Positions 13,516 through 32,720 of a stretch of 33,397 nt of DNA are shown here, in pieces. The DNA is from Thermodesulfobacteriota bacterium (GTDB taxonomy: Bacteria; Desulfobacterota; UBA8473). Numbering within the stretch: position 1 is the stretch's first letter; each line of letters opens with the position of its first letter. A program made the position numbers and the translations under genes. The stretch covers positions 1-33,397 of the forward strand of contig JAXHSZ010000068.1 of assembly GCA_034190725.1 (NCBI GenBank), in the 5' to 3' direction. The notes under the pieces are model-generated. The model was not told where the DNA came from, did not search any database, and saw only the letters and a list, made by a program, of their open reading frames with translations.

Positions 13516-13608
13516 AGCCTGGAGCGGAATTTTATCAGAGGCTAATTCTGCGGTTAATATCTTCCTTTTTCTTGACTGTACAGAATATTTCAGTTGCAGA
13601 TGAAAATT

Positions 13609-15445: not shown

Positions 15446-15654
15446 AAAGAACTTTGGACTGTCAAGATATCATGAAAAGGAGAAAATTTTTTTCATACTC
15501 AGTTTCAACTCCACCTTGTTTGGAATTATTGCTACCACTTGAAATATACGTTGTTGAAATACAGATGAATATTATCTTTAATGGCCGATACTTCTTGTCA
15601 GTTTCTTTTTCTGAATCTATGTCCGATTGAGTACTGAATGTGTGATATAGAGAT

Positions 15655-16965
15655 ATGAAGGGTGACCATATGTATTACGAGTATTGGGATCTCAAAAAAC
15701 CGCCTTTTGACAATGTTCCGGACCCATCCATGTATGTGGAGTCTCATGGATCAGTAGAGACAGCCATATCAGAGACCCTATTCGCCATAGAGGCAGGAAA
15801 CGAATGCATCTCAGTAATTGTTGGCGATGCAGGCACGGGTAAGACCATGACATTGAGAATGATCATGGATAGTCTCGAGCAAGAAAAATATAAAATCGCC
15901 TTCATAACCAATCCCGACATGTCATTTGTCCAGCTTTTACGAGAAATAATTGGCCAGTTAACAGAGGAAGAATGCGAGGCAAAGAGAAAGATCGAGCTTC
16001 TGGATCATTTCAAAAAACTTTTATTTGAGACGATCGATGAAGGCAAGAAGGTTCTTATCTTCATCGATGAGGCAAATGCTATTTCTCCGGCGAACCTGGA
16101 AAGTCTCAGGTTACTTACCAATATGCAGGATGAAAGCAGAAATCTTTTTAGCATAGTTCTCTCCGGGCAGATGGAATTGGCTGAACGATTAGAACATCCA
16201 AAGCGAGTGAACCTTCTTCAGAGGATTGGTAGCTACAACAGGATCGATAAAATACAGTCGGAAGATCTCATAAAGGAGTATGTGGGAACTCGGCTCAAAC
16301 TGGCTGGTGGAACAAAGAAAGTCTTTTCAGATGATGTCTACACATATCTATGGGAATATTCGGATCATGGAATTCCCTGTCTTGTCAATAAAATCTGCAA
16401 ATTAAGTTTAAAGGCTGGAGAGACAAAAGGCCTTCATGAGATAACAGGAGACGTTGTAAAACAGGTTGGTGAACGGTTTGAGAGGTTGGTCGGCCCGGCA
16501 ATTCAAAAGAGGAGACCTCGAAAAAGAACAATTGAGAATGTTGTTTCTGAACAAACCGGAATACAAGAAGATAAGCAAAAACCAATTCTAGCAGAACTCA
16601 GAGAGAAAAGAGAGGTTGCATCCCGCATCCAAAGAAAGAGACTGAGAAAAAGGCCAGCTGATGAAGAGGGACAGAAGTCTGTTCCAGAAAAAAGTGATGA
16701 GGAACAATCAAGGATTGGGAGATTTAAGATAGGCAAGATAGGGATACCTTCCTATATTATCCATGAGGCAAAATCCACCACAAAGGAACACCGTCTGAAG
16801 CTTGCAGGAGTTTTAGCTGCTCAGACACTCAAGAAATATCCTCAGTTATTAGAATCCTCACCTTCGGCTGATCCGATTACCGTATGGAATGAAGCGAGAA
16901 ATCTCATCTACAGTAGGATTGAAGAGGAAATCGCTACAATAGAAGCTTCAAGTTCGTCTTCTTAA
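15655..16965 (+). CDS. ExeA/GspA/MshM-like AAA+ ATPase (AAA_22) with a charged K/R/E-rich C-terminal half
   Basis: The N-terminal signature is YWDLKKPPFDNVPDPSMYVESHGSVETAISETLFAI. Walker A is GDAGTGKT and Walker B is VLIFIDEA. The start could instead be ATG 15670, which has AAGGGTG upstream. Confidence 0.8.
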   Translation: MKGDHMYYEYWDLKKPPFDNVPDPSMYVESHGSVETAISETLFAIEAGNECISVIVGDAGTGKTMTLRMIMDSLEQEKYKIAFITNPDMSFVQLLREIIGQLTEEECEAKRKIELLDHFKKLLFETIDEGKKVLIFIDEANAISPANLESLRLLTNMQDESRNLFSIVLSGQMELAERLEHPKRVNLLQRIGSYNRIDKIQSEDLIKEYVGTRLKLAGGTKKVFSDDVYTYLWEYSDHGIPCLVNKICKLSLKAGETKGLHEITGDVVKQVGERFERLVGPAIQKRRPRKRTIENVVSEQTGIQEDKQKPILAELREKREVASRIQRKRLRKRPADEEGQKSVPEKSDEEQSRIGRFKIGKIGIPSYIIHEAKSTTKEHRLKLAGVLAAQTLKKYPQLLESSPSADPITVWNEARNLIYSRIEEEIATIEASSSSS

Positions 16966-16990
16966 ATGCGAATTTATTTTTGCCCTGCCC

Positions 16991-17887
16991 TCAGTTGCTC
17001 AACTTTTTCAAAAGCTGATTTGCACGAGTATGTCCAGGGTTGACAGACAAGACAAAGTGGAGTCTCCGAGTTATCTCCTTCTTTTTTGACTGATTCAGGT
17101 CTGACTTGTTACGGAGATAGTCGAGCCGTGCAACATTGAAATGGGCTTCTTCCTGATAGGAATCGAGTGAAAGTGACTTTTCATAAGCAGAAGAAGCTTC
17201 TTGATACTTTCCCATCTCTTCATATACTGCACCCAGGTTATTCCACACCTCAGCATTGTATGGGTCCAACCCCAGTACTCTCACAAAGGATTCCTTTGCA
17301 TTTTTATAATCCCCCTGTTGGATGTAGAGATTTCCAATATTAAAACGTGCTTTTATGTGATTGGGATTTATCTCCAGTACCATCTGATAGTATTTCATTG
17401 CCTCATCAAACATGTCATATCTATCATATAAGACGGCCAGACAAAAATGAGCGGGTATTGATTCGGGGTCTATATCAATTGCTTTCATGTATTGTTTTTC
17501 AGCACCTTTATAGTCGGCCTGTAAATCTGCGATGTGACCAAGATCAATAATGGCTTCAACGTCTTGAGGATTCAATTCCAAGGCTTGTTCATACATCTGC
17601 TTGGCACTGCTAAAACGTTCCAGTTTTTCATAAACATAGCCCAGGTTATTGTATGCTTCGGGATTGTCAGGCTCAATCTCTGTCACTTTTTTGAAGAACT
17701 CTAAAGCCTGATCATAATCCTCTTTCTCAAGATATATAAAGCCCAGATTCACATAGGCATCCACAAAGGTGTCATCGAGTTCTATACTCCTTTTGTAAGC
17801 GATTATGGCCTTATCATAATCAGCCTCAATGGTGTCATATCTATATCCTTCATTAAACCATTCTTTGGCAGTTCTTTTATTCGTCAT
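16991..17887 (-). CDS. tetratricopeptide-repeat protein (about 8 TPRs)
   Basis: It shows regular 34-aa repeats with the A..Y...L...P....A..NLG.Y pattern throughout, for example AYNNLGYVYEKLERFSSAKQMYEQALELNP. Confidence 0.85.
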   Translation of the reverse strand: MTNKRTAKEWFNEGYRYDTIEADYDKAIIAYKRSIELDDTFVDAYVNLGFIYLEKEDYDQALEFFKKVTEIEPDNPEAYNNLGYVYEKLERFSSAKQMYEQALELNPQDVEAIIDLGHIADLQADYKGAEKQYMKAIDIDPESIPAHFCLAVLYDRYDMFDEAMKYYQMVLEINPNHIKARFNIGNLYIQQGDYKNAKESFVRVLGLDPYNAEVWNNLGAVYEEMGKYQEASSAYEKSLSLDSYQEEAHFNVARLDYLRNKSDLNQSKKKEITRRLHFVLSVNPGHTRANQLLKKLSN

Positions 17888-18509
17888 ATAACACCCTCAA
17901 CATGAGACCACATTTAAAAGATGAGAAACTTTAAAAAAAGACGTTCAATTGCAAAGTTTAAAGTGAAAAACATGTTACCAGACGGGTTATTTGTTGTCAA
18001 GATTGAATGATTTAAAGTTTTTTTATTGCAGACCGATAATAAAGAAAGAAAAGGAAATCATGGTCTATTAAATAACGGTTTTTTGCACTTAAAAATCCCC
18101 CTTGCCCCCTTTTTAAAGATTGGTGAGCGAGGGATTTTCATTATACTGCACATTGCATTTTCTATACAGATTTTTAATGAGTGATTGGCCGAAAACTAGA
18201 GAAAAAATAAAATTTTAAAGTGCGAATGCAATATTTTGAAAATATCTATTCTAGGTTGTATGGCTTCAGCTACAAGCCTTTAGAATAATGTTTTCACTAT
18301 CTGAAGTTGAATGCTGATCGCTGTTTGATTCATCATATTATCATGTGTACCTACTCCTTTATTATTTCACCAGTAATAGATTTTTTTTAATCACTCATCG
18401 AAAACCGTAATGGCTTTTTAATTCTTTGATATTATTTATCTTTCCCCTTTTAATCAGACTGGCAGAAGGAATGTTCTTCTATTAGTTTTCTACAAATAGG
18501 ATACCAATA

Positions 18510-19556
18510 TTGGCTAAGATTGATGTGTTGCTTAACATGATGATAGAGTATGGGGCTTCTGATTTGCATGTTTCCGCAGGAAATCCTCCTATGCTCAGAA
18601 TCAACGGTGAATTACAGAGAACAAAATATCATGATCTTTCTCCCAAAGAAGCTGAAGTCCTTCTTCTTGAGATGTTGGATGAAGAGACGCTGGAACTTCT
18701 GAAGAAGAAGAGGGATATTGATTTTGCATATGAACTTGAAAATAAAGGTCGTTTTCGTGCCAATGTTTTCATGGAAAAAAACGGATATGGAGGAGCATTC
18801 CGTCTAATTCCTACACAGATAAAGACTCTCAGGGAACTTATGCTCCCTGAGTCCATCTATTCCCTTGCGCGTATGAAGAGCGGTCTTGTATTGGTAACAG
18901 GACCAACGGGATCAGGCAAATCCACGACTCTCGCTTCTATGATAGATTTAATGAATAAGGAGAATAATTATCACATCATCACTCTAGAAGATCCAATAGA
19001 ATTTATATATCCCAAAGGGAAATGCCTTATACACCAAAGGCAAATGGGTTTTCATGTAGATAGCTTTTCTTCAGGTCTGAGGGCCGGCTTGAGAGAGGAC
19101 CCTGATGTTATTCTTGTCGGGGAGATGAGAGATCTGGAGACAATCCATCTGGCACTGACAGCATCAGAGACAGGACTTTTGGTCCTCGCCACTCTCCATA
19201 CTTCCAGTGCTGCCCAGACAATTGATCGTATCATAGATGTATTTCCCACATCACAGCAACCTCAGGTCAGAACCATGCTGAGTGAATCCTTACGTGGAGT
19301 GATTGCACAACAATTATTAATACGATCTGATAAGAAGGGCAGAGTTGCAGCCGTGGAAGTAATGATATGCAATCAGGCCATCCGGAATCTGATTAGAGAG
19401 GGGAAAACGTATCAAATATCTTCCGTGCTTCAGACAGCTCGATCTAAGGGGATGCAGACCTTAGAAAGCCACATCACGGAACTGGTGGGACAGGATTTGA
19501 TAAGTGAGGAGGAAGCAAATTTATACAGAAAGGACAATGAAGCAGTCTCCCAATGA
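18510..19556 (+). CDS. pilT: PilT-type type IV pilus retraction ATPase
   Basis: It carries GASDLHVSAGNPPMLRINGEL, Walker A GPTGSGKST, Asp box LEDPIEF, Walker B VILVGEMRD and an intact His box ATLHTSSA. The size of about 348 aa fits. The start is TTG at 18510; ATG 18537 is an alternative. Confidence 0.9.
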   Translation: MAKIDVLLNMMIEYGASDLHVSAGNPPMLRINGELQRTKYHDLSPKEAEVLLLEMLDEETLELLKKKRDIDFAYELENKGRFRANVFMEKNGYGGAFRLIPTQIKTLRELMLPESIYSLARMKSGLVLVTGPTGSGKSTTLASMIDLMNKENNYHIITLEDPIEFIYPKGKCLIHQRQMGFHVDSFSSGLRAGLREDPDVILVGEMRDLETIHLALTASETGLLVLATLHTSSAAQTIDRIIDVFPTSQQPQVRTMLSESLRGVIAQQLLIRSDKKGRVAAVEVMICNQAIRNLIREGKTYQISSVLQTARSKGMQTLESHITELVGQDLISEEEANLYRKDNEAVSQ

Positions 19557-21582: not shown

Positions 21583-21653
21583 GTCATATCTGTTTTCATA
21601 CTTCATGATGTCCACCTATCATGAAATACCCGAAGAGATTAAAGGAGGAGTTG

Positions 21654-22109
21654 ATGTACAAGATTGATATGGTAAAGAGGGAAGCTGAGGTCTTTTTCGC
21701 TGATGGAAGCAGTCTTGCGGGAAGCTTTTTCGTCTCACCCCAATCATCAAGTCATTCAGGGAGCCAGTTGGTATCTGAATTGCTCATTGACAAAAATTCA
21801 TATTTGCCCTTCGAGTTAGATGGAGAGGAGACAATTATCCTATGGAGGGGATCTATTGTAATGGTTATTTTAGAGAAAAATGAGCTGAACTTGCAGACTC
21901 CTTGCTTAAAACAGATTATCGTTCGGGTCTGTCTCATTTCTGGTGGAAATCTGAATGGCAAGGTATTCACAGATCTTCCGGAAAGTTACACACGCCTTTC
22001 TGATTTCTTGAATCATAATGATCAATTCTTTCATTTAGAGGTGGATAACAAGGATCATCTGATTAATTCCAGATTCGTTAAGATGGTAGAACCCGGGCTG
22101 TCAGCTTAA
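21654..22109 (+). CDS. hypothetical protein, about 151 aa, with two similar beta-rich halves
   Basis: AAAGGAGGAG lies directly upstream of ATG 21654. There is internal similarity between AEVFFADGSSLAGSFFV and VRVCLISGGNLNGKVFT. I recognise no family. Confidence 0.6.
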   Translation: MYKIDMVKREAEVFFADGSSLAGSFFVSPQSSSHSGSQLVSELLIDKNSYLPFELDGEETIILWRGSIVMVILEKNELNLQTPCLKQIIVRVCLISGGNLNGKVFTDLPESYTRLSDFLNHNDQFFHLEVDNKDHLINSRFVKMVEPGLSA

Positions 22110-22122
22110 CAGAAATTTTGTG

Positions 22123-24441
22123 TCATGCAACACAGACTCTTCTCACTTCATCAATATCAGTCAATCCCATAAAAACCTTATTGATTCCATCTTGTTTCAT
22201 AGTAGTCATTCCATCTCTTATTGCTTGTTCAAAAAGGTCCCCTTCGGTTGCCCGTTCTTTGATCAGACCTTTTATTTGAGGCGTCCCTTCCATCAATTCA
22301 TGTATGCCTATACGTCCTTTGTAACCGGAATGAGTGCATAGGTCGCAGCCCACAGGACGATAGAGTTTAAGATCAGGACTAAAATCCCCTTTAAAGGCCT
22401 TAAATTGTCCATTACCATAATCGGAAACAATATCCTCAAACTCCTCTTTTGAGGGGTGATATTCCTCACGGCAGTTTGTGCATAGTCTTCTGACAAGCCT
22501 TTGAGCAAGCACACCCAGGAGAGCATGAGAGAGATTGAGTTGATTCAAGCCGGTGCTCAGGAGTGTGGTCACTGTTTCACAAGCACCTTCCGTATTGAGG
22601 GATGAAAAGACGAGATGTCCGGTCAGCGAGGCTTGTATTGCCATTGAGGCTGTTCTATCCTCCTGCATCTCACCGATCATGATAACATCCCCATCGGCTA
22701 ATAAAAGAAAGCGCATAATCCTTGTAAAATCTAATCCTATTCCAGGTTGTACCTCAATCTGTCTCATATCGGTCTGAACAATCTCCACAGGATCTTCTGC
22801 AGTCCAGATTTTGAGGTCTGACCTTTTGATATGAGCAAGGACACTGTGAAGGGTTGTGGTTTTTCCTGAACTGGTTGGGCCTGATACCAGCATAAGACCA
22901 TAAGGCTTTGTAAGGATGTTTTTGATTTTATCTAGATTTTTTTCACTCAATCCTATTTCATCCAGTGCCATTACATCGGTCTTCACCAATATTTTGACAA
23001 CAATATCCTCGACCTCTCCTATAGTTGGGATGGTGGTTACTCGAAGATCAAGAGGTGGTGTATCTTTTCCCTTGAATTTAATCTTCCCATCTTGAGGTAT
23101 GAATGTTTCTTCCTCATCGAGGTTGGCCATTGCTTTCAGTCTTGAAAGTAATTCCTGGGCCATGGACTGGGGTATGTGAAGATACTCCTGACAAACACCA
23201 TCCATTCTGAAGCGTATACCAGCTGACTTTGAATCGAATGACGGCTCGATGTGTATGTGTGATACTTTTTTTCGATACGCATCAACTAGAATCTGCTCCA
23301 ATAGCCCTATCACTTTATCAGATACTTCATCATCCCTCACACTGTACCCCTCTGTCTCAGTCATCACATCTGATTCAGACTTTACTTCTTTTCTCTCACC
23401 TTCACCCTCCTCTTGTCCATCATCCACTTGCTCCTTATCCTTCTCTGTTTCTCTCCCCATATCATATTTTTTTTCTTCCTCCAAATTCATGTCCGCATCT
23501 ACTTGGACCTTTTGACTTGTCTCCGGTTCTACTTCCGTTTCAGCATCCAAACTTTTTTCCAAGTTCAGAGCGATGTCATCGTCTGTGTCTATTCCTGCCT
23601 CAATCTTCCCATCTTCTTCATCAAGGGGGAAGTCAGAAATAAGATCAAAGTCCATTTCTATCTCATCAATGGTCATATCATTCTTTATAAAACTGTCCGG
23701 CGATCTCATTTCAGAGTCATGATGCTCATCTTCAGCATCTGCTTTCTGCAATTTTTCATTATCTACAATATATCCATCCGTTTCTGATCCTAAAGAAAAG
23801 TCAGTGGTAAGAGAATCTACTTTCTTTTTGATTTCAATATTGTCTGGGTCCTTTTCCACTGCTGACTTGTACAGATCAAAGGCCAGATCATTATGTTGCC
23901 TCTTTTCCATCTCCAGCCCAAGCAAAAACTGAATCCGCCCGGCCTCATCTTCATCGATGCCGTGTCTGTTGAAAAGGCTTTCTATCTGCTCTTTAACTGC
24001 TGTGGCAGGATAAATACTGAAGAGACATTCTGAAAGATTGGGGACTATTTTTCCAGGGGGATAATTATGTTCAAATAGCATTTCATATTTAGCGATTGCT
24101 TCTTTGAAAAGGCCAAGTTTCTTGAATGCTGATGCACTGTCCAGGATTTCCTCAACGCTTTCAATATCTGTTTTGTTCGCCATATTGATGGGAGGCTCTT
24201 GTGCTGAGAGTTCAGATGCTTCTGTAACTTCATCGTTTTGTTGTTCCCTGATTTCCTTTTTCAATGACGCAATCTTTTCTCTGATTTTTATTTGTTTATA
24301 TGCATCCAGTTCCGGGACATCTTGAAGAATTTGTTCATAGGACTGTAGGGAGTCTCCCAACAATCCCATTGAATAATAGACCTCTGATGCCCGTAATTTT
24401 GCTTCTACGTCGATTTTTTTTCCGGTTACATTCTCATTCAT
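22123..24441 (-). CDS. GspE/PilB-family secretion ATPase with a non-canonical N-terminus (TPR-like helices plus a polyacidic linker of about 160 aa) and a degenerate His box
   Basis: The core motifs are VSHIHIEP, Walker A GPTSSGKTT, Asp box AEDPVE, Walker B DVIMIGEMQE and the tetracysteine CTNC...CDLC. The His box reads SSLNTEG (AAT codon 22594-22596) instead of S/TLHTN. The SD GGTGGAG lies upstream. Confidence 0.85.
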   Translation of the reverse strand: MNENVTGKKIDVEAKLRASEVYYSMGLLGDSLQSYEQILQDVPELDAYKQIKIREKIASLKKEIREQQNDEVTEASELSAQEPPINMANKTDIESVEEILDSASAFKKLGLFKEAIAKYEMLFEHNYPPGKIVPNLSECLFSIYPATAVKEQIESLFNRHGIDEDEAGRIQFLLGLEMEKRQHNDLAFDLYKSAVEKDPDNIEIKKKVDSLTTDFSLGSETDGYIVDNEKLQKADAEDEHHDSEMRSPDSFIKNDMTIDEIEMDFDLISDFPLDEEDGKIEAGIDTDDDIALNLEKSLDAETEVEPETSQKVQVDADMNLEEEKKYDMGRETEKDKEQVDDGQEEGEGERKEVKSESDVMTETEGYSVRDDEVSDKVIGLLEQILVDAYRKKVSHIHIEPSFDSKSAGIRFRMDGVCQEYLHIPQSMAQELLSRLKAMANLDEEETFIPQDGKIKFKGKDTPPLDLRVTTIPTIGEVEDIVVKILVKTDVMALDEIGLSEKNLDKIKNILTKPYGLMLVSGPTSSGKTTTLHSVLAHIKRSDLKIWTAEDPVEIVQTDMRQIEVQPGIGLDFTRIMRFLLLADGDVIMIGEMQEDRTASMAIQASLTGHLVFSSLNTEGACETVTTLLSTGLNQLNLSHALLGVLAQRLVRRLCTNCREEYHPSKEEFEDIVSDYGNGQFKAFKGDFSPDLKLYRPVGCDLCTHSGYKGRIGIHELMEGTPQIKGLIKERATEGDLFEQAIRDGMTTMKQDGINKVFMGLTDIDEVRRVCVA

Positions 24442-24719
24442 TTTGTCTCCACCTCGACCTGAACCAGGCCTTGTTTAAAATGTATTTATTCGATCTTTTT
24501 ATTATTCCCAAACCTATCATGAGCAACTGACAACCACTGCAAGTACTCGCAGACTTATACATAACTCCCATCGGTTGAAAATCGGTTATCAACTGAAACC
24601 GCTTGAAGTATTCATACGTCTGGAGTGAGAATAATCTATTATCTTGCTCATTTTTACCTATAATAGATCAGAATCGCAATATACGTATTGTAATTATTAT
24701 AAACTGTAACAAAGCTACT

Positions 24720-25100
24720 CTATCTTGCAAAAAGATGCGTGAATCTTTTAATTTTTCCCATCTGCTTCAAATTGGGCAACAGAGTGTCGCAATTGAGTCG
24801 TAACATGGCAATTGGAGCGAAAACTCCCATAAGCACAAAGAGATATCCATGCTCTATTCTCCTGATATAAAGTCTGCTCTTTTCAAATAGTAAATCCGCT
24901 TCTCTGATTCCTTTCAATGAGTCAATAAAAAAGCCCCACCAGTCTTTTGTATGAGGATCTACTGGAGGTGGAGATAAAAACTCTTCAAATATGATCTCTC
25001 CCTGAAAAGAGACTAATATAACCCCTTTCACATCTTCAGTTGTCAAAATACAGTGCAATAGTTTCTTGATTTCTTTCTTGGATGGCAATTTCGTTTGCAT
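24720..25100 (-). CDS. Roadblock/LC7-like small protein (second MglB-type paralogue), tentative
   Basis: The 126-aa protein shows the pattern LLHCILTTEDVKGVILVSFQGEII...ADLLFEKSRLYIRRIEHGYLFVLM, typical of Robl_LC7 (alpha-beta-beta ... beta-beta). Confidence 0.5.
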   Translation of the reverse strand: MQTKLPSKKEIKKLLHCILTTEDVKGVILVSFQGEIIFEEFLSPPPVDPHTKDWWGFFIDSLKGIREADLLFEKSRLYIRRIEHGYLFVLMGVFAPIAMLRLNCDTLLPNLKQMGKIKRFTHLFAR

Positions 25101-25333
25101 TCTTTGTTATCACCAGTTCACAAATCTTGAGATCCTGTTCTCAACGAAACAGGCTGAAGTTCCTTGAAAAAAGTAATAATCCGTGAGGGTGAATAGGACT
25201 TTGGTACGCACCGGCTGCTTGCTTCGTTTCTCATTAGATGCAGAGTCTGACACGTATCCTCATATACATAAAAACCTGCAATCCTAGTATTAATTTCAAT
25301 CTGAAGGTGAACATTCCCTTGATTTATAACAAT

Positions 25334-26407
25334 TTATGCGAATGTATCATTTATAATTTGAATTATTTTTTCCTTAGGACACTTTGGACTGATTGAAATG
25401 ACTGTTGTCTCTTGACCAGGTAAAAGTATGAAATCATTTGATTCACCCCTGTCTATATAGGCAAGATTCAGTCTTCCTGCATCAAAGATTGCCCCCATTT
25501 TTCGTATCTGCGCCATGAAGCTGTTCCATGAATTGTCCTGATATATGTTCTCTAGCTCCCACTTTTTATCCATCTTTGCATCCAACTTACACTTAATATA
25601 ATCCGTGGGGTTCGTATCTTCTGTACCCCCATTTTTCACCAATTCATCTGGGTTTTCATCCTCATTAGAGGGAGCGCCTGGTTCTTCTCTCTGCTCACGC
25701 TCATCTTTAAGCCGCATTGCTTCAAGGAGGACTGCCTGAAGGTCGTTCTCGATCCTCTTTTTCTTATTAAAACATGCATTTTGGATTGAAAGGTTCGCTT
25801 CATCCCAAGAGAGAATTTCATATGCAGCGACTGTTCCTTGGATACTCCCAACTCTTGCATCAATCAGCGCACCTTCCTTGACAAAGAGTACTCCATGTTT
25901 CCCCGACTGCTTATCATTTAACCTAATGGTACATGTCTTCCTTTCCATATCCATCAACTGTAAAAACATCCCAGAAGAGATATCATGTAATATTCCACCC
26001 TCTGACTCCCTCTGTAAGATCATCTTAATTTTCCGAGTAAGATCACTGATCACAATGGGTTTTTCAATGTATTCCAAGGCATCTTCCATTTGGATCTGCC
26101 TCTTGAGGCTTTCTTTCCCATAACCGGTCATTATGAATACCGGAATATCCGGAAAGTGTTCAACGATATAAGCCCGGAGTGTAGCTCCATTCATTTGTGG
26201 CATTTTGAGGTCAGTAACCACCAGAGAGATGGGGTTTTCCTTCAGCATTTTTATGGCTTGAAAACCGTCTCTGGCGGTTATTACAGAAAAATGCTCATCG
26301 TGGTCTTCAAGGCTTTCTTTGAGAGAGCGCAACACCTCTAGATTATCGTCGACAATGAGTATCTTTTTCTTCATAATTTTAGTCAATGAATTTTCAGTTT
26401 CATCCAT
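25334..26407 (-). CDS. response regulator: canonical receiver, DUF4388, and an unknown C-terminal domain
   Basis: The receiver residues are KKILIVDD, VVTDLKMP, IMTGYG and EKP. The DUF4388 pattern is GILHDISSGMFLQLM...GVLFVKEGALIDA...GTVAAYEILSW. The start is either ATG 26407 (inside a 34-bp palindrome) or ATG 26371 (MKKKILIVDD). Confidence 0.85.
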   Translation of the reverse strand: MDETENSLTKIMKKKILIVDDNLEVLRSLKESLEDHDEHFSVITARDGFQAIKMLKENPISLVVTDLKMPQMNGATLRAYIVEHFPDIPVFIMTGYGKESLKRQIQMEDALEYIEKPIVISDLTRKIKMILQRESEGGILHDISSGMFLQLMDMERKTCTIRLNDKQSGKHGVLFVKEGALIDARVGSIQGTVAAYEILSWDEANLSIQNACFNKKKRIENDLQAVLLEAMRLKDEREQREEPGAPSNEDENPDELVKNGGTEDTNPTDYIKCKLDAKMDKKWELENIYQDNSWNSFMAQIRKMGAIFDAGRLNLAYIDRGESNDFILLPGQETTVISISPKCPKEKIIQIINDTFA

Positions 26408-26425
26408 GCATGGATGAAACTGAAA
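26392..26425. repeat. 34-bp perfect palindrome spanning the annotated start codon of the REC-DUF4388 gene
   Basis: TTTCAGTTTCATCCATG|CATGGATGAAACTGAAA matches at 17/17. It lies between the stop of the 242-aa gene (26436) and the REC gene. Confidence 0.85.
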
Positions 26426-26435
26426 GTGAATTGAA

Positions 26436-27164
26436 TTACGGGAAACTGATCCTGTATCTTTTTAGCATATCGCAATGTCTCTTGAACCATGGATCTAAAT
26501 TCTTTTCAAGCTGATGCAGGATTCCAAGTTCATTGGCCGATTCCTTTACGGATTCTACTACCCCATATATGAGGTCTTGAGTGCTTGCATCCCCTTTAAA
26601 TGAAATCTTTTGATCAGAGTATTCGAATTCACCTGCAAACGGATCAAGAAAATCATACTTGCCAGCCAGTTCCACAAATTTCTTTTTGAGCAGAATACTG
26701 GACCCTGTCTTTATCTTCTTGTTTGAACCGACTGTTTGCTCGAATGCAATCAATAGTTCTTCGAGCATATTGAGCGCATTCGAAAATAATCTCCGACTCG
26801 TCTGTATCTTTCTCTTTTCTTTGTTTTCCATTGTAGGGGGAATCTTGCCGACGTTAAAAGTCCCCCCCCCTTCTTTTGTTTTTTGAATAAGGAGTTTTTG
26901 GTCTTCTTGGAAATTTCTGATCTTTCCGTTGTTCCACGAATACGACCCGACAACCATGTCTCCATTCTGGAAAAAGATGAGGCCCCTTTCCTCCCCTTTG
27001 CCTATTAATACATCCACATAACCGGTGAGCTTCTGAAAACTCATCTTTGTTAACAAACCTTCAAGATCAATGATGTCGACACTGAGGCCTTCATACATCA
27101 TCTTTGCGTTATATGCATTTGCCCAATAGTAGACTTTCTCATGATCTATATCATAGATGTTCAC
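26436..27164 (-). CDS. hypothetical protein with a DUF4388-like N-terminal module
   Basis: The GTG start overlaps the upstream stop (GTGA). The pattern LTGYVDVLIGKGEERGLIFFQNGDMVVGS resembles the DUF4388 core. The C-terminal half is unknown. Confidence 0.6.
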   Translation of the reverse strand: MNIYDIDHEKVYYWANAYNAKMMYEGLSVDIIDLEGLLTKMSFQKLTGYVDVLIGKGEERGLIFFQNGDMVVGSYSWNNGKIRNFQEDQKLLIQKTKEGGGTFNVGKIPPTMENKEKRKIQTSRRLFSNALNMLEELLIAFEQTVGSNKKIKTGSSILLKKKFVELAGKYDFLDPFAGEFEYSDQKISFKGDASTQDLIYGVVESVKESANELGILHQLEKNLDPWFKRHCDMLKRYRISFP

Positions 27165-27421
27165 TGTAAAATTATGGCTGCCTTTTTTTGCATGAGCAGA
27201 CCCACTGCTTTCTCGCCTTCGATCTCCCCGTATTTATTCTGAAAAACAGCTGTCAAAAGTTCGTCTTTGTCAAAGAAAATCATGCCTTCTGCGGAAACAG
27301 ACTTAAAATGGATCCCTCCTGCATCGAACTCCCCTTGATAGTGTTCCACAAGTCGCTCCATGTCGAGGTAATAGCTGTTCAGATTCTGAATAGAAGGCTT
27401 CTCTCTCGGAACAATAACCAT
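27161..27421 (-). CDS. small DUF4388-like protein (86 aa)
   Basis: The pattern FDAGGIHFKSVSAEGMIFFDKDELLTAVF...GEKAVGLLM resembles the DUF4388 core. It is translationally coupled to the next gene through a 4-nt overlap. Confidence 0.55.
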   Translation of the reverse strand: MVIVPREKPSIQNLNSYYLDMERLVEHYQGEFDAGGIHFKSVSAEGMIFFDKDELLTAVFQNKYGEIEGEKAVGLLMQKKAAIILQ

Positions 27422-27474
27422 TCGTCTCTCAAATTACACTTTTCAGGGTCTGTCATAAAAAAAGCATCACATCT

Positions 27475-28620
27475 TCAGGCTGCGTTCTTTGCTTTACGTC
27501 CTCGCAATCTCTCAATTGAAAGACGGATACTGTCCTGCATGCGTGAGACTGCTTCTGCCAGATCTTCTATTTCATCATTGGATTTTATTTCTATTTCTGC
27601 ATCCAACTCACCTATACTGATACGGTCCGCGGTTTCGGAGAGATGTCGGATTTTACCTGTAAGGCTACGTCCGTAGAGAAATATAATACATGCAATGGCG
27701 ACAAGCCCTGTCCCCATTGTTATCATATTGGCTCTTCTTATTTTTTCAGCAATCTGCGCTCCCTCTTTTTCCAGTATGTTAACGGGTGCATAGAGTTCAT
27801 CAAGGTAGAGAGTAGAACCAACAACATAGGATGTCCCTTCAACAGGAATACAAGCCATGTATTTCTCCCTTGTTCGCCCGTCCTTTTCATGCCATGTGTA
27901 GTAACCTGTTGAGCCCTTTCTGCCTTCCACTCCTGTAAGGGTTTTCCAAAATCCTTTAAAATTCTTCCCGAGAGTCTTTTTTAACTGGCTTAAATCAATG
28001 CCTACCAGGTGAGGGTTGGGATGGACCCATGCTCTCCAGATCCCATTTTCATCAGGCATCTCATAGAGAACAGTGTAACCGGTACGTCCTATCCTGTGGA
28101 GGACTACTTTCTTGAATTCTGGATCGCTATTGAAGTCCTCTTTTTTCAAGTCCGGGTGTTTCATGAGGTAGTTTTTAATCTGCATTGCTAAAAACTTGGA
28201 ATGACTATTTGTCTTCTCCTCTGTCATTCGTGTTATTATATTGACACTTTTATTTATTGTAAGCTCTTGCATGGATGACATGTTTCGTATTGAAAGAAAA
28301 ATACTGACGCTATAAATGATGATCAACGGCACAAGGATAAAAAACATAAATTTCGTTGTCAGACCAATTCTCCATGAACGCTTCCCGAAGATCTTCGCTA
28401 CACGATTTCCTGCATGCTTTTTTTGAATTGTAGGTTTGAAATGCGGCGTTGCCTTTTTTATGGCATGATAACCGTGTTGTGATTCCGAAGATCTGACATC
28501 AGGTTTCATTATGGTAATAACATGCCCACAAAACTGGCATTTCCCTTGGGCCGCATCTCCTTTAATTTTTGAAGGATCTACTCGATATTTTCCTCCGCAT
28601 TCCTCACAAAAAACAATCAT
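27475..28620 (-). CDS. membrane sensor: N-terminal MJ0042-type zinc ribbon, TM, Cache-like extracytoplasmic domain, TM, HAMP; no output domain
   Basis: The zinc ribbon is MIVFCEECGGKYRV...GKCQFCGHVI (CxxC...CxxC). The two hydrophobic segments are FMFFILVPLIIIYSVSIFL and MITMGTGLVAIACIIFLY. The HAMP region is LTGKIRHLSETADRISIGELDAEIEIKSNDEIEDLAEAVSRM, and the protein ends about 20 aa later. I prefer ATG 28620, with GAGGAG 7 nt upstream. Confidence 0.8.
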   Translation of the reverse strand: MIVFCEECGGKYRVDPSKIKGDAAQGKCQFCGHVITIMKPDVRSSESQHGYHAIKKATPHFKPTIQKKHAGNRVAKIFGKRSWRIGLTTKFMFFILVPLIIIYSVSIFLSIRNMSSMQELTINKSVNIITRMTEEKTNSHSKFLAMQIKNYLMKHPDLKKEDFNSDPEFKKVVLHRIGRTGYTVLYEMPDENGIWRAWVHPNPHLVGIDLSQLKKTLGKNFKGFWKTLTGVEGRKGSTGYYTWHEKDGRTREKYMACIPVEGTSYVVGSTLYLDELYAPVNILEKEGAQIAEKIRRANMITMGTGLVAIACIIFLYGRSLTGKIRHLSETADRISIGELDAEIEIKSNDEIEDLAEAVSRMQDSIRLSIERLRGRKAKNAA

Positions 28621-28631
28621 AGCTGAGCTCC

Positions 28632-29126
28632 TCAAGAAAGTTTCTTAGTATTATTGGAAATATCCGTTTCCTTAATTTTCTTGATCATATTCTGTTTAAA
28701 CCGTGTCATCTTCTCCTCTCGTTGTATCTGTCTGGCAAGCAAGTCAACCAACTCAGCTGCTCGACAACTCGGAAAATGTGATAGAGTATGATCCAGGTCA
28801 CTGACTGCATCATCGATCAATATCTCGGCTATTGGACCCACGGCCAAGGACAATTGAGCATTGAGATAATCAAAGAAGTCATCTTGCAGAATGGGAACAG
28901 CGCCCTCAACAGGTTCAACAAGCTCTAGTTTTAGAAGCTTGGAAATGATCTCCTTGATGATACCTATCTTTATACCCGTCTTCTGGGCTATTGTCCCAAG
29001 ATTTTTTTTGCCATCTAATTCCATAATGACTTTTAACATCTGGCTGGTCAGGGAAAACTCTCCAAGGTTGTCCCTCATTACGCGCTTGAAAACCATAACA
29101 TACGCTTCATTCAACGAAATATTCAT
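28632..29126 (-). CDS. hypothetical protein with a possible winged-helix (MarR-like) segment
   Basis: It contains the wHTH-like stretch NLGTIAQKTGIKIGIIKEIISKLLKLELVEPV. GGAG lies 9 nt upstream of the ATG. Its stop is followed at once by the SD of the next gene. Confidence 0.6.
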   Translation of the reverse strand: MNISLNEAYVMVFKRVMRDNLGEFSLTSQMLKVIMELDGKKNLGTIAQKTGIKIGIIKEIISKLLKLELVEPVEGAVPILQDDFFDYLNAQLSLAVGPIAEILIDDAVSDLDHTLSHFPSCRAAELVDLLARQIQREEKMTRFKQNMIKKIKETDISNNTKKLS

Positions 29127-29247
29127 TTCAAAGTCTCCAATAAACTCACTTCTCAGCCATTTGTTCTCATTATGAATGGAGTATGTAATTGATCAAGAAC
29201 TATCAAGAATTTTGTTTCTCCTTTCTGGAAGACTATCAGGTTCCCTT

Positions 29248-31611
29248 TTACTTTTCTTCTCTCCATAATTTTAATTCTTCCCTGAGAGAGCTGAATTCTG
29301 ATTGTATTGTATTCTTTATCTCTTCCAATACATGAATAAAAGCTTCGTCAGTCCATGTCATTGTTCCCTCAGGTCGAGATAATCCATCCTCACTCTGTTG
29401 ATAGAAATCGACCATCTCTTCTCTGTTCTCTTCATATTCTCCCGATATGGCGGGGGCAATCATTTCCGGGATTATATCTTCTTCTTCAATTGTTTCACAA
29501 GGAGTATCAGTGTCTTCAACCCCTATAGCTCCATAATCTTCTGCTGATGCATCAAAGTCTACAATCTCTTCAGTGATTTGGTCGTCCTGATAAGTCAATT
29601 CCGGAAAATCCATTCCTCCCCCTTGATCTTCCGCATAGTCTAATAAACATGCATCTTCTATTGGCATCTGCAAAGCGTCATCTTGTTCTAAGACAGCCAA
29701 TTCCGAAACGTCAATCTCTTCATCTTCGGTTGCCATTTTATCCTGTGGGAATCCCTGAAACATTTTCGTTTCAAGGGTGGAATCCGCTTCTTGAACAGTC
29801 AATTCCTGAAGAGTATTTTCTTGCTCCGTTTCATCCATCATAGATTTATTCTGTGTAGTCATTCCAAACGAGCTGTATGCTTCTTCATTGGTCTTTTCCT
29901 TGACATGGATCTCTTCTTCATCGGTCATGTCATCCTGTACAGTGATATCCTGTGTGGTCATTTCAGGCATAATATATTCTTCTTTGTCGATTCCATCTTC
30001 GATAGAGATCTCTTCTTCATTGATCACATCATCCTGTACAACGATATCCTGTGCGGTCATTTCAGGCGTGATGTATCCTTCTTTATCTACTTCCCGGAAT
30101 TCTAACTCTTCCTCTTCGTCTTTTATCTCTAACTTTTGCTCAATCTCTTCATCGATACCAACACTTGTGTCTTTCTTCCGTTTTCCGAATAACCAGAATC
30201 TCCTTCTTCCTTTTTTCTTTTTAGAAGATATTTCTTCTTCATTGGTTGCACTGTCTTCAGTAAAAGTATCAGCAGAGATTATTGTGGGACCAAATTCTGG
30301 TTCCTCTGTAACCTCATCCGATATATTAATCTCTTTCTCTTCTCCAGTGAAATCTTCTTCTGATATTGTATCGGAGATCAGTATTTCAGGTGGGGCGTAC
30401 TCTTCTTCGTCAAGTGTCTTTCCGATATTTATCTCTTCCTCTATAGCAACAATTTCAGTTTCTGCAGGTGTGTCTTGAGATGGAATATCCTGTAATGTAA
30501 ATTTTTCTTCTATAAACTCATTTTGAGTCTCAATCATATCTTCTTGGTCCGGCATCTCATCATTGAACAGCACATGGGATTCCATTGTCGGAAGGACTTC
30601 ATCTTCTTCAGTTGTGACTTCATTCTCAGGCACTTGGGGCATCGTCATCTCATCGGATCTTTTTTCCATTCGTTCTGAGACAGCAGTTTTTTCTAAAGCA
30701 ATTTCTTTTTTAAATTCATTAAATGCATTCAACTCTGCAATGAAGATTTCATCCTTTTCTAATTCTGAAATCTCTTGGGATACCATCACCTTTTCCAGAC
30801 TATCACAAGCAGAGCAGAGTAATCTCATAGATTTCGGATTGGCTTTTTCCTTCTTTACTTGAATATATTTACCAATACCGCCAATGAGTTGAAGAAACAA
30901 AAGAGCAATCCTGTCTTCATTCCACATGTGCTTTAGCCTATTCATCTCATCGTTAAACCGCACCAAAACCTGATCTTTTATTTCCAAATCGAGTGATTCA
31001 ACAATTTCTTTTAAATTTTTCACTGGTGAATCAGGTATATCGGTGGCGTTATCTTCTTCCATCTCTGCAACAATTACAGTCTCAGGAGGAGTTTCTATTT
31101 CCATCGCCTCAACAAGAGGAAGTTCCATCTTTCTGGGAGTTTCTGTCTTTTCAAGGGCAATCTGTCTTTTCAGCTCATTGAATTTATTCAGTTCAATGCG
31201 AAACAACCTTTGCTTATTTTCTTCAGAAATTCCGTTTGTTAATGCCACCTTTTCGAGACTACTATAGGCAGAATGGAGCAATCCAATGGAACCATGATGG
31301 GCTTTGTCCCGCTTTTTTCTGATATATTGTCCAACCCCTCCAAGGAGCTGAAGGAACATAAGAATAGTTTTGTCATGCTTCCAAATCTCTTTTTGCCTGT
31401 CTATCTCGTTGTTGAATCTGTCCATTATCTGATCGGTAATCTCCCAATCGAGTGATAGAACTGCGACCTTCAAGTCTTTGATTGGCGAATCCTGCACGCC
31501 GAGGGAGGAGTCCTGTTCCTGACTGTCAGTTTGTATTTCATTTTCTCCAAAGAGTTCATCAAATCGTTCATCCAGTTCCATGGTAATCGTAACATCATCG
31601 TTATAATTCAA
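29248..31611 (-). CDS. hyperacidic repeat protein (787 aa), unknown function
   Basis: The TTG start at 31611 lies 7 nt after a GGAGGG that directly follows the mglA stop. The protein has two copies of a module of about 116 aa (31144-31491 and 30685-31032). It also has three 33-aa acidic repeats (29788-30084) and one basic/hydrophobic island, SSKKKKGRRRFWLFGKRKKD (30169-30228). Confidence 0.8.
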   Translation of the reverse strand: MNYNDDVTITMELDERFDELFGENEIQTDSQEQDSSLGVQDSPIKDLKVAVLSLDWEITDQIMDRFNNEIDRQKEIWKHDKTILMFLQLLGGVGQYIRKKRDKAHHGSIGLLHSAYSSLEKVALTNGISEENKQRLFRIELNKFNELKRQIALEKTETPRKMELPLVEAMEIETPPETVIVAEMEEDNATDIPDSPVKNLKEIVESLDLEIKDQVLVRFNDEMNRLKHMWNEDRIALLFLQLIGGIGKYIQVKKEKANPKSMRLLCSACDSLEKVMVSQEISELEKDEIFIAELNAFNEFKKEIALEKTAVSERMEKRSDEMTMPQVPENEVTTEEDEVLPTMESHVLFNDEMPDQEDMIETQNEFIEEKFTLQDIPSQDTPAETEIVAIEEEINIGKTLDEEEYAPPEILISDTISEEDFTGEEKEINISDEVTEEPEFGPTIISADTFTEDSATNEEEISSKKKKGRRRFWLFGKRKKDTSVGIDEEIEQKLEIKDEEEELEFREVDKEGYITPEMTAQDIVVQDDVINEEEISIEDGIDKEEYIMPEMTTQDITVQDDMTDEEEIHVKEKTNEEAYSSFGMTTQNKSMMDETEQENTLQELTVQEADSTLETKMFQGFPQDKMATEDEEIDVSELAVLEQDDALQMPIEDACLLDYAEDQGGGMDFPELTYQDDQITEEIVDFDASAEDYGAIGVEDTDTPCETIEEEDIIPEMIAPAISGEYEENREEMVDFYQQSEDGLSRPEGTMTWTDEAFIHVLEEIKNTIQSEFSSLREELKLWREEK

Positions 31612-31623
31612 TTGTCTGCCCTC

Positions 31624-32229
31624 CTATTTCAGTTCCTCTTGCAAGGATGATATAGTTGTGGATATTATCCTTTTCAGTGTGGGAAGCACATTTTCTCCTG
31701 TTACAGCACTGGCCTCAAAAGAAGGTACCTTCAAACGCCCGTTAAGGTCTTTTTCCAGTGTTTCTAAAGATAAGAGAGGAATACCATCTTCTTTGAGGTC
31801 CCTTTTGTTATATTGCAATACAAGGGGAACCCTGAAGATGTTCTTATTATGAGCCGTCAAGTTTTCTTGAAGACTCTTGAGAGATAAAAGATTCTTTTCT
31901 CTTCTCACTGCCATGGAGTCAGCAACAAAAACAACACCATCCACCCCTTTCAAAACCAAGCGTCTGGTTGCATTATACTTCACCTGTCCCGGCACTGTGT
32001 AGAGTTGTATTCGAACAGCATATCCCTTTATCTTCCCCACATCAAAAGGAAGAAAATCAAAGAAGAGGGTTCGGTCTCCATAAGTCTTTATACTGACCAT
32101 ATCCGATTTGACCCTCTCTTTAAATCGTGTATTTATATATTCGAGATTCGTGGTCTTCCCACCCCTACCAGGGCCATAGTAGACTATTTTTACCTGTACC
32201 TCTTTGTTTTTGAGATTGATGAATGCCAA
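31624..32229 (-). CDS. mglA: MglA-family Ras-like small GTPase
   Basis: It matches MglA landmarks closely: FINLKNKEVQVKIVYYGPGRGGKTTNLEYI, GDRTLFFDFLP, LYTVPGQV, LKGVDGVVFVADS and LQYNKRDL. I place the start at TTG 32229, 5 nt after GGAGGGA, which gives (M)AFIN... as in MglA. The ORF-track start at 32244 would include the SD. Confidence 0.92.
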   Translation of the reverse strand: MAFINLKNKEVQVKIVYYGPGRGGKTTNLEYINTRFKERVKSDMVSIKTYGDRTLFFDFLPFDVGKIKGYAVRIQLYTVPGQVKYNATRRLVLKGVDGVVFVADSMAVRREKNLLSLKSLQENLTAHNKNIFRVPLVLQYNKRDLKEDGIPLLSLETLEKDLNGRLKVPSFEASAVTGENVLPTLKRIISTTISSLQEELK

Positions 32230-32327
32230 AACTGATCCCTCCAAAATACTGGTTCAATTCTCATACCGACTGGACCAATCGGACTGATAAAGCAAAGAAA
32301 ATAAGAAATGAGGTGAAGAATTCCTCA

Positions 32328-32720
32328 TTAATGTTCCCACACATCTCTCAATTTATTGGCAGCCTCTGCCACTTTCAGGCGGAGAAAACCCAGAGAGATA
32401 TCTTTCCCGAATAGGATGATCAGAAGAAAATCACCATTCACCTTGCTGAAATGCATACTTTTCTCTTGCCCTTTGTGAAAGAGCAGTGAAAACTCGTCTT
32501 CTCCAATGATGTTTGCCATGGCATTCACAGCACCGAAATTACCTGCACCCAATGCTGCTAAAGAATACACATCATGATCGCTCTCTCCATTGTCGCATCT
32601 TGCAATAATATTGCCTGCCATATCAATAAAAATGACGGAGTTGGCACCAACTTCGATCAGGTCCTCTGCCAGAATGGTCTCAATCCTATCAAGTTGTTCA
32701 GGGGTAAAACTGTATTCCAT
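32328..32720 (-). CDS. mglB: MglB-type Roadblock/LC7 protein (cognate GAP of MglA)
   Basis: The Robl_LC7 pattern is GANSVIFIDMAGNIIA...SLAALGAGNFGAVNAMANIIGEDEFSLLFHKG...FLLIILFG. It sits directly upstream of mglA, as in the classical mglBA operon. The SD GAGGTGA lies upstream. Confidence 0.85.
   Translation of the reverse strand: MEYSFTPEQLDRIETILAEDLIEVGANSVIFIDMAGNIIARCDNGESDHDVYSLAALGAGNFGAVNAMANIIGEDEFSLLFHKGQEKSMHFSKVNGDFLLIILFGKDISLGFLRLKVAEAANKLRDVWEH

Follow-up and report, generated by a model that had tools for sequence, protein, structure and literature searches.

A nine-gene operon of Desulfobacterota encoding MglA and MglB homologues, a membrane sensor and a PilB/GspE-family ATPase

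Described MglA and PATAN systems and the locus under study

In Myxococcus xanthus, the small GTPase MglA acts on the ATPase PilB through SgmX, a protein made of TPR repeats (bioRxiv 10.1101/2024.03.11.584430). In Synechocystis, PATAN regulators bind PilB1, and the same work noted MglA/B genes near PATAN genes as well as GspE_N-PATAN fusions (bioRxiv 10.1101/2021.06.11.447907). Wuichet and Sogaard-Andersen reported in 2015 that the neighbourhoods of Group-1 MglA genes "vary widely", that PATAN genes are "occasionally" near them, and that a subset of Group-1 MglA proteins is coupled to two MglB proteins; a passage of that paper cites Makarova 2006 for the linkage of MglB and PATAN (PMC4316618). 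Since these reports note both, the broad associations of MglA/B with PATAN and of PATAN with PilB were already known. Here we describe a stretch of 33,397 nucleotides (nt) of contig JAXHSZ010000068.1 (assembly GCA_034190725.1) from a Thermodesulfobacteriota bacterium, called the window from here on. Sequence comparisons indicated that its minus strand, between positions 22123 and 32720, holds one member of a widespread and uncharacterised nine-gene operon of Desulfobacterota. On that strand the operon reads mglB, mglA, a helical-bundle protein (p787 in the window, p228 in short form), a DUF8082 protein (p164), a sensor with a zinc ribbon, a Cache-like domain and HAMP, the PATAN-like p327, a REC-PATAN regulator, a second Roadblock protein (p126) and a TPR-PilB/GspE-like ATPase. 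By analogy with the systems named above, we consider it reasonably probable that the operon couples a Ras-like MglA polarity switch and a dedicated membrane sensor with the PilB/GspE-family ATPase. A limited literature search returned no description of the nine-gene operon, its core, its AF1503/AF1502-like input or the bundle family.

The operon shares with the M. xanthus polarity module (MglA, MglB, MglC, RomR/RomX) a Group-1 MglA with an intrinsic arginine and a TVPGQ motif, an MglB, a Roadblock paralogue, and TPR repeats that are presumed to bridge MglA-GTP and an extension-type ATPase. It differs in that all parts are encoded together, the ATPase itself carries the TPR repeats, which in M. 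xanthus make up the separate 14-repeat protein SgmX, a conserved third gene (p228/p787) follows mglA, and a HAMP-only receptor plus PATAN serves as the input in place of Frz; among the operon genes, no homologue of RomR, RomX, FrzS or SopA was recognised. As in the PixG, PixE and LsiR proteins of Synechocystis, PATAN is joined to a receiver, an extension-type ATPase is the likely target, and the control would be spatial. Unlike those proteins, the operon has a C-terminal domain (CTD) after REC-PATAN, a link to MglA/MglB and a receiver-less tandem PATAN/DUF2226-like protein, and this variant lacks CheA and a methyl-accepting chemotaxis protein (MCP). The sensor ends right after HAMP, as does AF1503 of Archaeoglobus fulgidus, and the small protein encoded next to it shares the motif L..L...GPIA..li..A...LG with AF1502; the bacterial receptor, however, adds an N-terminal MJ0042-type zinc ribbon, and its partner adds a half that resembles a winged helix-turn-helix (wHTH). 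GltJ (AgmX) of the Myxococcus gliding machinery, an MglA-governed system, is likewise a membrane protein whose cytoplasmic N-terminus carries an MJ0042-type zinc ribbon, but a ribbon of about 40 residues is all that the two have in common, and MJ0042 ribbons occur in unrelated proteins too. In the actinobacterial conservon (CvnA-D), the sensor is considered to act through a GTPase as its output (PMC4316618). The conservon GTPases, however, belong to Group 2 and have no intrinsic arginine finger, CvnA is a histidine kinase, and there is neither a T2SSE ATPase nor PATAN. An earlier reading of the window made from its letters alone (the sequence-only reading) could not match this combination of genes to the Frz, Pil-Chp, Pix/Tax or Wsp-type circuits, and the present comparison agrees with it.

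Conservation and variants of the operon

The neighbourhood comparison that the sequence-only reading had proposed was carried out as two synteny scans. One was anchored on the p327 family and used one genome per species; the other was anchored on the ATPase in metagenomes and is independent of the p327 anchor. The p327 family was found in 389 species genomes, nearly all of them labelled as Desulfobacterota lineages, with Desulfobacterales, Desulfatiglandales, Desulfatibacillaceae and an Olavius symbiont among the carriers. The order and strand of the minus-strand genes recur in these other genomes, and among the loci long enough to show a given partner, 87-100% contain it (Table 1). Among the ATPase-anchored metagenome loci, MglA was present in 13 of 14 and p228 in 12 of 14.

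The invariant core of the operon consists of MglB, MglA, the helical-bundle protein (p228/p787) and the TPR-(MshEN)-T2SSE ATPase. A five-gene cassette (DUF8082, receptor, p327, REC-PATAN-CTD and second Roadblock protein) is inserted into this core as a block and is lacking in other lineages. The minimal form seen among ATPase-anchored loci reads MglB-MglA-bundle (p228)-(kinase)-ATPase. One minimal locus (L163, positions 12589-16623) lies beside genes for REC-PAS, MCP and CheW proteins and an Hpt-HATPase_c kinase identified with Pfam, and the open reading frames (ORFs) next to a second one (L128, 13527-17586) match this chemosensory set by size. It appears that the core can be combined with different input modules. 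A bare trio of MglB, MglA and a bundle protein of 1054 amino acids (aa) was found among housekeeping genes at positions 8896-13165 of locus L169 (CALNZA010000001.1, 2.4 Mb); a T2SSF (PilC-like) gene lies at a distance of 5 kb from it.

Additional genes were found in the relatives. A PAS-PAS protein is encoded between p327 and REC-PATAN in 50 of 64 loci, a hybrid histidine kinase gene precedes the ATPase gene in 5 of 39, and a small HATPase_c gene and a gene for an NtrC-type sigma-54 activator are located upstream of mglB in several of them. Searches of the intergenic gaps of the window with tblastn detected no remnants of PAS, hybrid-kinase or HATPase_c genes. The earlier statement that the module has no kinase is thus true of the window, but this is a feature of its sub-lineage, as relatives carry PAS, hybrid-kinase or MCP/CheW/CheA genes. 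Two related loci, L167 and L168, share the PAS-less order of the window, and L168 also encodes a long acidic bundle protein.

The ORFs of the window were searched against Pfam, NCBIfam and the PDB, with ORFs of at least 80 aa included in the Pfam scan. None of the Pfam families of pilins, the PilC platform, PilMNOP, secretins or prepilin peptidases was found in these ORFs, no prepilin motif of the G-F/M-T-L-I-E type was present in the six frames of the window, and the Pfam scans identified no CheA, CheW or MCP in it. The absences listed by the sequence-only reading were therefore borne out by both kinds of scan. Judged by gene content, the window would be neither a locus for a type IVa pilus machine nor a chemosensory locus of the Frz, Pil-Chp, Tax or Wsp kind.

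Table 1. Features of the window and occurrence of the operon partners in related loci (denominators are the related loci with enough flanking sequence to show the partner)
Feature	Position	Strand	Basis	Related loci
Candidate sigma-54 promoter TGGCACACTTATTGCT	33345..33360	-	consensus match	
mglB, Roadblock/LC7 protein, 130 aa	32328..32720	-	Pfam, NCBIfam, PDB	41/45
mglA, Group-1 small GTPase, 201 aa	31624..32229	-	M. xanthus MglA match, motifs	48/51
p787, helical-bundle protein, 787 aa	29248..31611	-	no Pfam match; AlphaFold2 (AF2) model of short homologue	47/51
p164, DUF8082 protein, 164 aa	28632..29126	-	precomputed PF26309	56/62
Sensor, 381 aa from ATG at 28620	27475..28620	-	Pfam, NCBIfam, profile matches	64/66
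p327, tandem PATAN/DUF2226-like, one gene read as 86-aa and 242-aa ORFs	26436..27421	-	homologues of ~327 aa	
p327 frameshift site CAAAAAAAGG	27181..27190	-	one G fewer than L167	
REC-PATAN-CTD response regulator, 357 aa	25334..26407	-	Pfam Response_reg, DUF4388	64/64
p126, second Roadblock-fold protein (predicted), 126 aa, pI 9.4	24720..25100	-	AF2 and Foldseek	54/57
TPR-like and PilB/GspE-family ATPase, 772 aa	22123..24441	-	T2SSE, E 9e-97	34/39
p162, 162-aa protein of unknown function	21621..22109	+	sub-threshold DUF6812 match only	
MshEN, degenerate receiver, REC, PATAN protein, 692 aa	19504..21582	+	Pfam	
PilT-family ATPase, 348 aa	18510..19556	+	TIGR01420	
TPR protein, between ExeA-like and PilT genes	16991..17887	-	Pfam, NCBIfam	
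ExeA/MshM-like AAA_22 ATPase	15655..16965	+	Pfam, NCBIfam	

Proteins encoded by the operon

The mglB product scored above the Pfam cut-off for Robl_LC7, matched the NCBIfam MglB model (E 3e-14) and found M. xanthus MglB in the PDB search (E 8e-16); it is the presumed GTPase-activating partner of MglA. The mglA product scored 188 bits against M. xanthus MglA, so that the sequence-only calls of both genes were upheld. Its motifs are the P-loop GPGRGGKTT (residues 19-27), DRT with the intrinsic arginine (52-54, in the context DRTLFFDF), TVPGQ (78-82) and NKRD (141-144). The features by which Group 1 is recognised (PMC4316618) are all found here: the P-loop, the intrinsic arginine beside the G2 threonine, the TVPGQ G3 motif, and an MglB homologue encoded adjacently, with 98 nt from the end of mglB to mglA; 41 of 45 related loci keep this pair. 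The start of mglA was placed at the TTG at 32229, five codons inside the mechanically called ORF (32244), because a Shine-Dalgarno site (GGAGGG) precedes it and because a Logan contig of identical sequence has the gene called as the same 201-aa product. Identity to the relatives is about 70-76% for MglA and about 60-65% for MglB.

Transcription of the operon is probably sigma-54 dependent. The sequence TGGCACACTTATTGCT, 625 nt upstream of mglB, is the only sigma-54 consensus without mismatches in the window. In 16 of 62 related loci, a sigma-54 motif with at most one mismatch precedes mglB or the HATPase_c gene, with a background of 0.025 per kb, and several of these loci encode an adjacent NtrC-type activator. 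In the 680 nt upstream of mglB, neither an ORF nor an Rfam family was found and nothing is conserved with L168, and consensus scans for promoters and terminators gave nothing informative.

The hyperacidic character that the sequence-only reading had ascribed to the 787-aa protein was confirmed: p787 contains 27% aspartate plus glutamate (D+E), has an isoelectric point (pI) of 4.1 and matches no Pfam family. Its bundle domain is duplicated (residues ~41-165 and ~196-310) and is followed by a linker of 440 residues with 32% D+E, which holds a 33-aa repeat, and by a conserved C-terminal helix. The short homologues (~230 aa) consist of an N-terminal helix (EVE.RL..LFGE), a helical bundle of ~115 aa, a disordered linker and a C-terminal helix, and in the AF2 model of one of them the helical bundle has a predicted local distance difference test score (pLDDT) above 90. 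The family forms 1127 clusters at 50% identity and has two size classes; its median length in the related loci is 244 aa, and about half of the best 150 representatives have 650-1350 aa with 3-7 matched stretches. The form encoded by L168, the closest relative, has 661 aa and the layout of p787. At the DNA level, a 99-nt tandem repeat (1.8 copies, 85% match) at 29908-30087 encodes the acidic ...PEMT.QDI.VQDD..EEEI in the linker, and the L168 homologue has a similar repeat, MTASDIMVDD. A role of the bundle protein as a CheA-P1/Hpt phosphorelay was considered and dropped: the match had an E value of 0.4, the near-invariant histidine lies at a helix junction, and the family is also found in kinase-less loci.

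The sensor comprises a cytoplasmic MJ0042-type zinc ribbon (Zn_ribbon_4/MJ0042), a transmembrane segment (residues 89-118), a periplasmic Cache-like domain, a second transmembrane segment (302-322) and HAMP (321-371 of 386 aa), with no output domain. It has the make-up of the HAMP-only receptors of the AF1503 type, namely two transmembrane segments around an extracytoplasmic domain and HAMP as the last element. The profile of the sensor family matched AF1503 (an engineered form, PDB 4cq4) with an E value of 6.6e-16 over the sensor domain, the second transmembrane segment and HAMP, about 260 profile positions. The zinc ribbon matched that of GltJ/AgmX (PDB 7zok), with E values of 2.4e-5 for the family profile and 3.7e-4 for the window sequence alone. 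All 29 members of the sensor family matched Cache_3-Cache_2 (best E 1e-6), and this region aligns with the sensor domain of AF1503; in the window protein, dCache_2 scored 22.6 bits against a gathering score of 26.5. Of the sensor as called from the sequence alone, the zinc ribbon, the two transmembrane segments and HAMP were confirmed, while the Cache domain is weak and stays below the gathering score in the window.

The neighbouring p164 belongs to DUF8082 according to the precomputed PF26309 assignment; its N-terminal part is wHTH-like, and its C-terminal part resembles AF1502. The earlier description as a wHTH-like protein found weak support (E ~1e-3 to 5e-3; Lrp-type HTH, E ~0.005). The top PDB hit of the C-terminal half was AF1502 (5a1q, E 0.039). 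The DUF8082 and sensor genes are duplicated jointly in two related loci, L052 and L082, and AF1502 adjoins AF1503 by locus number. Two adjacent genes thus appear to match two adjacently numbered archaeal genes; each match would be a weak lead singly, and the coincidence is notable.

The search for p327 homologues returned 155, and every one of them is a single protein with a length of about 327 aa. In the window, one G is missing at 27181-27190 with respect to the close relative L167 (CAAGAAAAAGGC in the window versus CAAAAAAAGGC in L167); L167 (dS, the synonymous divergence, ~0.2) reads CAA GAA AAA GGC and the window reads CAA AAA AAG GC. The same frameshift sequence is present on Logan contig L001. 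The "two DUF4388-like proteins" of the sequence-only reading, of 86 aa and 242 aa with a GTGA overlap, were therefore rejected as separate genes; they are one 327-aa gene split by a one-base deletion. This deletion creates a dnaX-type slippery heptamer, A_AAA_AAG, in the zero frame, and a -1 slip at this site would restore the full-length protein (...QKKGSHNFTVNIY). The ratios of nonsynonymous to synonymous divergence (dN/dS) with respect to the close relative were 0.11 and 0.35 for the two halves and 0.28 for the whole p327, as compared with 0.14 and 0.22 for neighbouring genes. Both halves are under purifying selection, and therefore the deletion is recent, an assembly error, or tolerated.

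Neither half of p327 in the window matched DUF4388 (PF14332). Among 27 homologues, 13 matched this family, and only the best reached the cut-off of 25, with 25.0 bits; DUF2226 was matched by 10 of the 27, several of them above its 22-bit cut-off. The first two thirds of p327 resemble two copies of the PATAN core (hhalign E ~3e-4 to 7e-4, with controls at 0.05 or worse), the p327 repeat matched the PATAN domain with E values of 4e-4 to 7e-4, and hhalign of the full-length p327 against REC-PATAN gave nothing convincing. We regard p327 as PATAN-like in a loose sense. The "up to four" DUF4388 adaptors proposed earlier have become two clear PATAN proteins, one of which is in the operon, and the rest is one frameshifted gene with two divergent PATAN/DUF2226-like repeats.

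The REC-DUF4388 regulator, as the sequence-only reading named it, matched Response_reg (E 4e-23) and DUF4388 (E 2.5e-12) and was thereby confirmed. Its PF14332 score was 47.4 bits and that of the 692-aa protein of the plus strand 70.1 bits, both above the cut-off of 25. The receiver is intact, with D20/D21, D66, T93 and K116 present. The domain order is REC (16-127), PATAN (138-237) and the conserved CTD, which is not the PATAN-REC order of cyanobacterial PatA. The CTD, of about 90 aa (residues ~262-357; 25334-25600), is conserved in all 45 homologues with the motif …G.l.lgYiDrge.nD.ILlPG..TTVisV.PkCP… and matched no Pfam family and neither Roadblock profile.

The small p126 had no Pfam match, its own profile found only dynein Roadblock chains with E values of ~0.6-1, and hhalign against MglB over the full length gave nothing convincing. 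Its AlphaFold model (pLDDT 82.6) has the topology alpha-beta-beta-alpha-beta-beta-beta-alpha, and Foldseek matched it to Thermus and Myxococcus MglB, LAMTOR and Asgard Roadblock proteins with a probability of 1.0 and TM-scores of 0.65-0.72. According to this model, p126 is a second Roadblock protein, as had been predicted; the assignment rests on the structure model because the sequence profiles are sub-threshold.

The last protein of the operon matched T2SSE (PF00437; E 9e-97), which corroborated its membership in the family of PilB/GspE-like ATPases. It scored 374 bits with the PilB equivalog TIGR02538 (cut-off 675.65) and 383 bits with the GspE equivalog TIGR02533 (cut-off 630.25), and its sequence can be assigned to the T2SSE superfamily only. 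Conserved TPR-like N-terminal repeats, an MshEN domain and canonical motifs characterise the family. The window ATPase has an acceptable Walker A (GPTSSGKT) and no MshEN match; a segment with 36% D+E (residues 216-375) stands in place of the domain, which is present in relatives. The consensus GEMRD and STLHTN, found in 119 of 119 relatives, reads GEMQE (Q593, E594) and SSLNTE (N616) in the window. Residues of GE.RD and of the His box are essential according to mutagenesis of PilB and PilT. The window ATPase may be catalytically impaired. The L168 ATPase shares the acidic segment that replaces MshEN, with a conserved DFD.I.DF.L.E motif, and the L168 contig stops short of the catalytic domain. 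The metagenomes yielded no very close relative of the window ATPase, the best having 63% identity. The window copy belongs to a derived sub-lineage without a PAS gene or kinase, in which MshEN has given way to an acidic segment and the bundle protein is duplicated and hyper-acidic. The remark that several partners are catalytically degenerate, made in the sequence-only reading, is correct for the ATPase (histidine to asparagine, GEMRD to GEMQE), for the His box of PilT and for a receiver of the 692-aa protein.

Proposed mechanism, alternative explanations and significance

The comparisons establish the genetic linkage of the operon genes and the identities of their domains. In the mechanism that we propose on this basis, MglA-GTP would mark or license a docking site for the ATPase on a type-IV-filament machine encoded elsewhere, probably by acting via the ATPase's own N-terminal TPR repeats, which would be a built-in SgmX-like adaptor. 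MglB would be the GTPase-activating protein, and the second Roadblock protein would modulate MglB in an MglC-like manner. The output-less AF1503-like receptor would sense an extracytoplasmic ligand and signal via HAMP and its DUF8082/AF1502-like partner, and its cytoplasmic GltJ-like zinc ribbon could hold MglA-GTP at the membrane. The phosphorylatable REC-PATAN and p327 would pass the signal on to the ATPase, in the way that the PATAN regulators of Synechocystis act on PilB1. A bolder form of this proposal is a new route of MglA signalling, in which the AF1503-type receptor and the AF1502-like partner would capture or release MglA-GTP via the zinc ribbon, the bundle family, whose gene always follows mglA, would be a new core regulator or effector of MglA/MglB, and together they would license the TPR-fused PilB-like ATPase. 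In this form we regard it as doubtful.

Several points weigh against the coupling of the MglA switch and the sensor with the ATPase. Every mechanistic arrow in the model is an analogy. The AF1502 match is weak (E 0.039), and the likeness of the zinc ribbon to that of GltJ, which reportedly binds MglA-GTP, is at the level of the domain family only. PDB sequence profile searches and Foldseek found no significant relative of the bundle protein, the top matches being CheA P1 four-helix bundles (E 0.4). The ATPase scores alike as GspE and PilB, below both cut-offs. In addition, the window ATPase has lost residues that are invariant in the 119 relatives and p327 is frameshifted, so the window copy may differ from the family. 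Finally, filament structural genes are absent from the window, and the searches of the related loci covered the window's own proteins only.

Some of these observations can be read in other ways. The operon might be decaying in the window organism, with pseudogenisation having left a locus that no longer controls anything: p327 has a one-base deletion, the ATPase has N616 and Q593/E594 where 119 of 119 relatives have H and RD, low-complexity acidic sequence has replaced MshEN, and no PAS or kinase remnant is left. However, all other reading frames are intact, MglA and MglB keep their identity to the relatives (~70-76% and ~60-65%), and purifying selection with respect to the close relative (dN/dS 0.14-0.28) includes both halves of p327. 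Moreover, L168 shows the PAS-less order and the long acidic bundle with its genes intact and has the acidic segment too, L167 shows the PAS-less order, and the frameshift itself may be a homopolymer sequencing error or be bypassed at A_AAA_AAG. Decay is, in our judgement, unlikely. A slightly lower probability is given to the ATPase driving another type-IV-filament or type-II-secretion-like export, for example of short pseudopili for surface or redox proteins, with MglA placing the export. The ExeA/MshM-like and TPR neighbours are of an MSHA or type-II-secretion kind, no pilin or PilMNOPQ genes are nearby, and the GspE score of the ATPase (383 bits) slightly exceeds its PilB score (374 bits), with neither cut-off reached. 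A multihaem cytochrome gene adjoins a minimal locus, but this was seen at a single locus only. The characterised Group-1 MglA systems, by contrast, all act on motility or type-IV-pilus polarity (PMC4316618; bioRxiv 10.1101/2024.03.11.584430), and PATAN regulators act on PilB1 (bioRxiv 10.1101/2021.06.11.447907).

The sequence-only reading had taken the whole 17-kb region as one self-contained module that steers extension and retraction ATPases from a kinase-less sensor. All genes of this region are type-IV-pilus-related and adjacent, and the two gene strings converge with 14 nt between p162 and the ATPase gene. The MshEN-REC-PATAN protein is of the PATAN/GspE_N fusion kind noted before (bioRxiv 10.1101/2021.06.11.447907), and a weak PilT-like match follows the ATPase gene in L081. 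Synteny largely refuted this explanation, however. PilT, the 692-aa protein, p162 and the ExeA-like protein were found in none of the 39 p327-anchored and none of the 24 ATPase-anchored loci with sufficient flanking sequence, the TPR protein lies beside the operon in 1 of 39, the content beyond the ATPase gene varies by locus, and relatives carry kinases. Because the converging genes are missing from practically all of the related loci, the conserved unit is 22123-32720, and the converging pilus-related genes are probably just neighbours of the operon. Thus, of the proposed island, the minus-strand string keeps its order and strand in other genomes without the plus-strand genes beside it, and the idea of extension and retraction ATPases under one module finds no basis in synteny. 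We consider the single 17-kb module the least probable of the explanations discussed here, and the coupling of the MglA switch and the sensor with the operon's own ATPase remains the preferred one.

The neighbouring genes themselves (ExeA-like AAA+, PilT, T2SSE_N/REC/DUF4388 and the small unknown protein) are present as they had been called. PilT scored 458.6 bits with TIGR01420 (cut-off 319.1), has AIRNLIREGK at residues 290-299 and belongs to this family; its His box reads TGLLVLATLHT, with TGLLV where TGHLV is expected. A receiver of the 692-aa protein has a glutamate at the position of the phospho-aspartate (E508, in IISEVNLP, 503-510). The ExeA-like AAA_22 protein is nearest to the PEP-CTERM-associated ATPase in NCBIfam, below its cut-off, and a copy of the sigma-54 motif with one mismatch is located at 15263-15278 (+), about 380 nt upstream of its gene. 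The ExeA-like and TPR proteins resemble the MshM/MshN pair of MSHA loci, and here they are encoded on opposite strands. The genes at 4.7-13.5 kb are metabolic and unrelated to the operon: at 4773-13515 (+), behind a TetR gene, lie genes for two tandem pyruvate formate-lyase-like glycyl-radical enzymes and for methylmalonyl-CoA-mutase-like, B12-binding and periplasmic binding proteins. The G+C content of this segment is 0.46-0.48 versus about 0.40 elsewhere in the window, and it could be a cluster, possibly acquired, for the anaerobic activation of hydrocarbons or organic acids. Rfam matched group II intron domains D1-D4 (RF02012, 71.8 bits, E 5e-13) at 3544-3695 (+), and a 401-aa ORF upstream of this match (1571-2776) had no Pfam match.

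The control of pilus polarity by MglA/MglB is understood almost only in Myxococcus, where the partners are scattered in the genome and were found singly. The operon described here provides a parts list and pairwise hypotheses for such a polarity switch in a large and environmentally important phylum, and makes testable by which route MglA-GTP reaches a pilus ATPase, what PATAN does outside cyanobacteria and what AF1503-type receptors target. The window copy, with its apparently inactivated ATPase, may be a natural example of a scaffold derived from a secretion ATPase. The new route of MglA signalling, if true, would give the first physiological output to a receptor that has been used as the structural archetype of HAMP domains, and would point to a module of MglA, Roadblock, PATAN(DUF2226) and AF1502-AF1503 common to archaea and bacteria.

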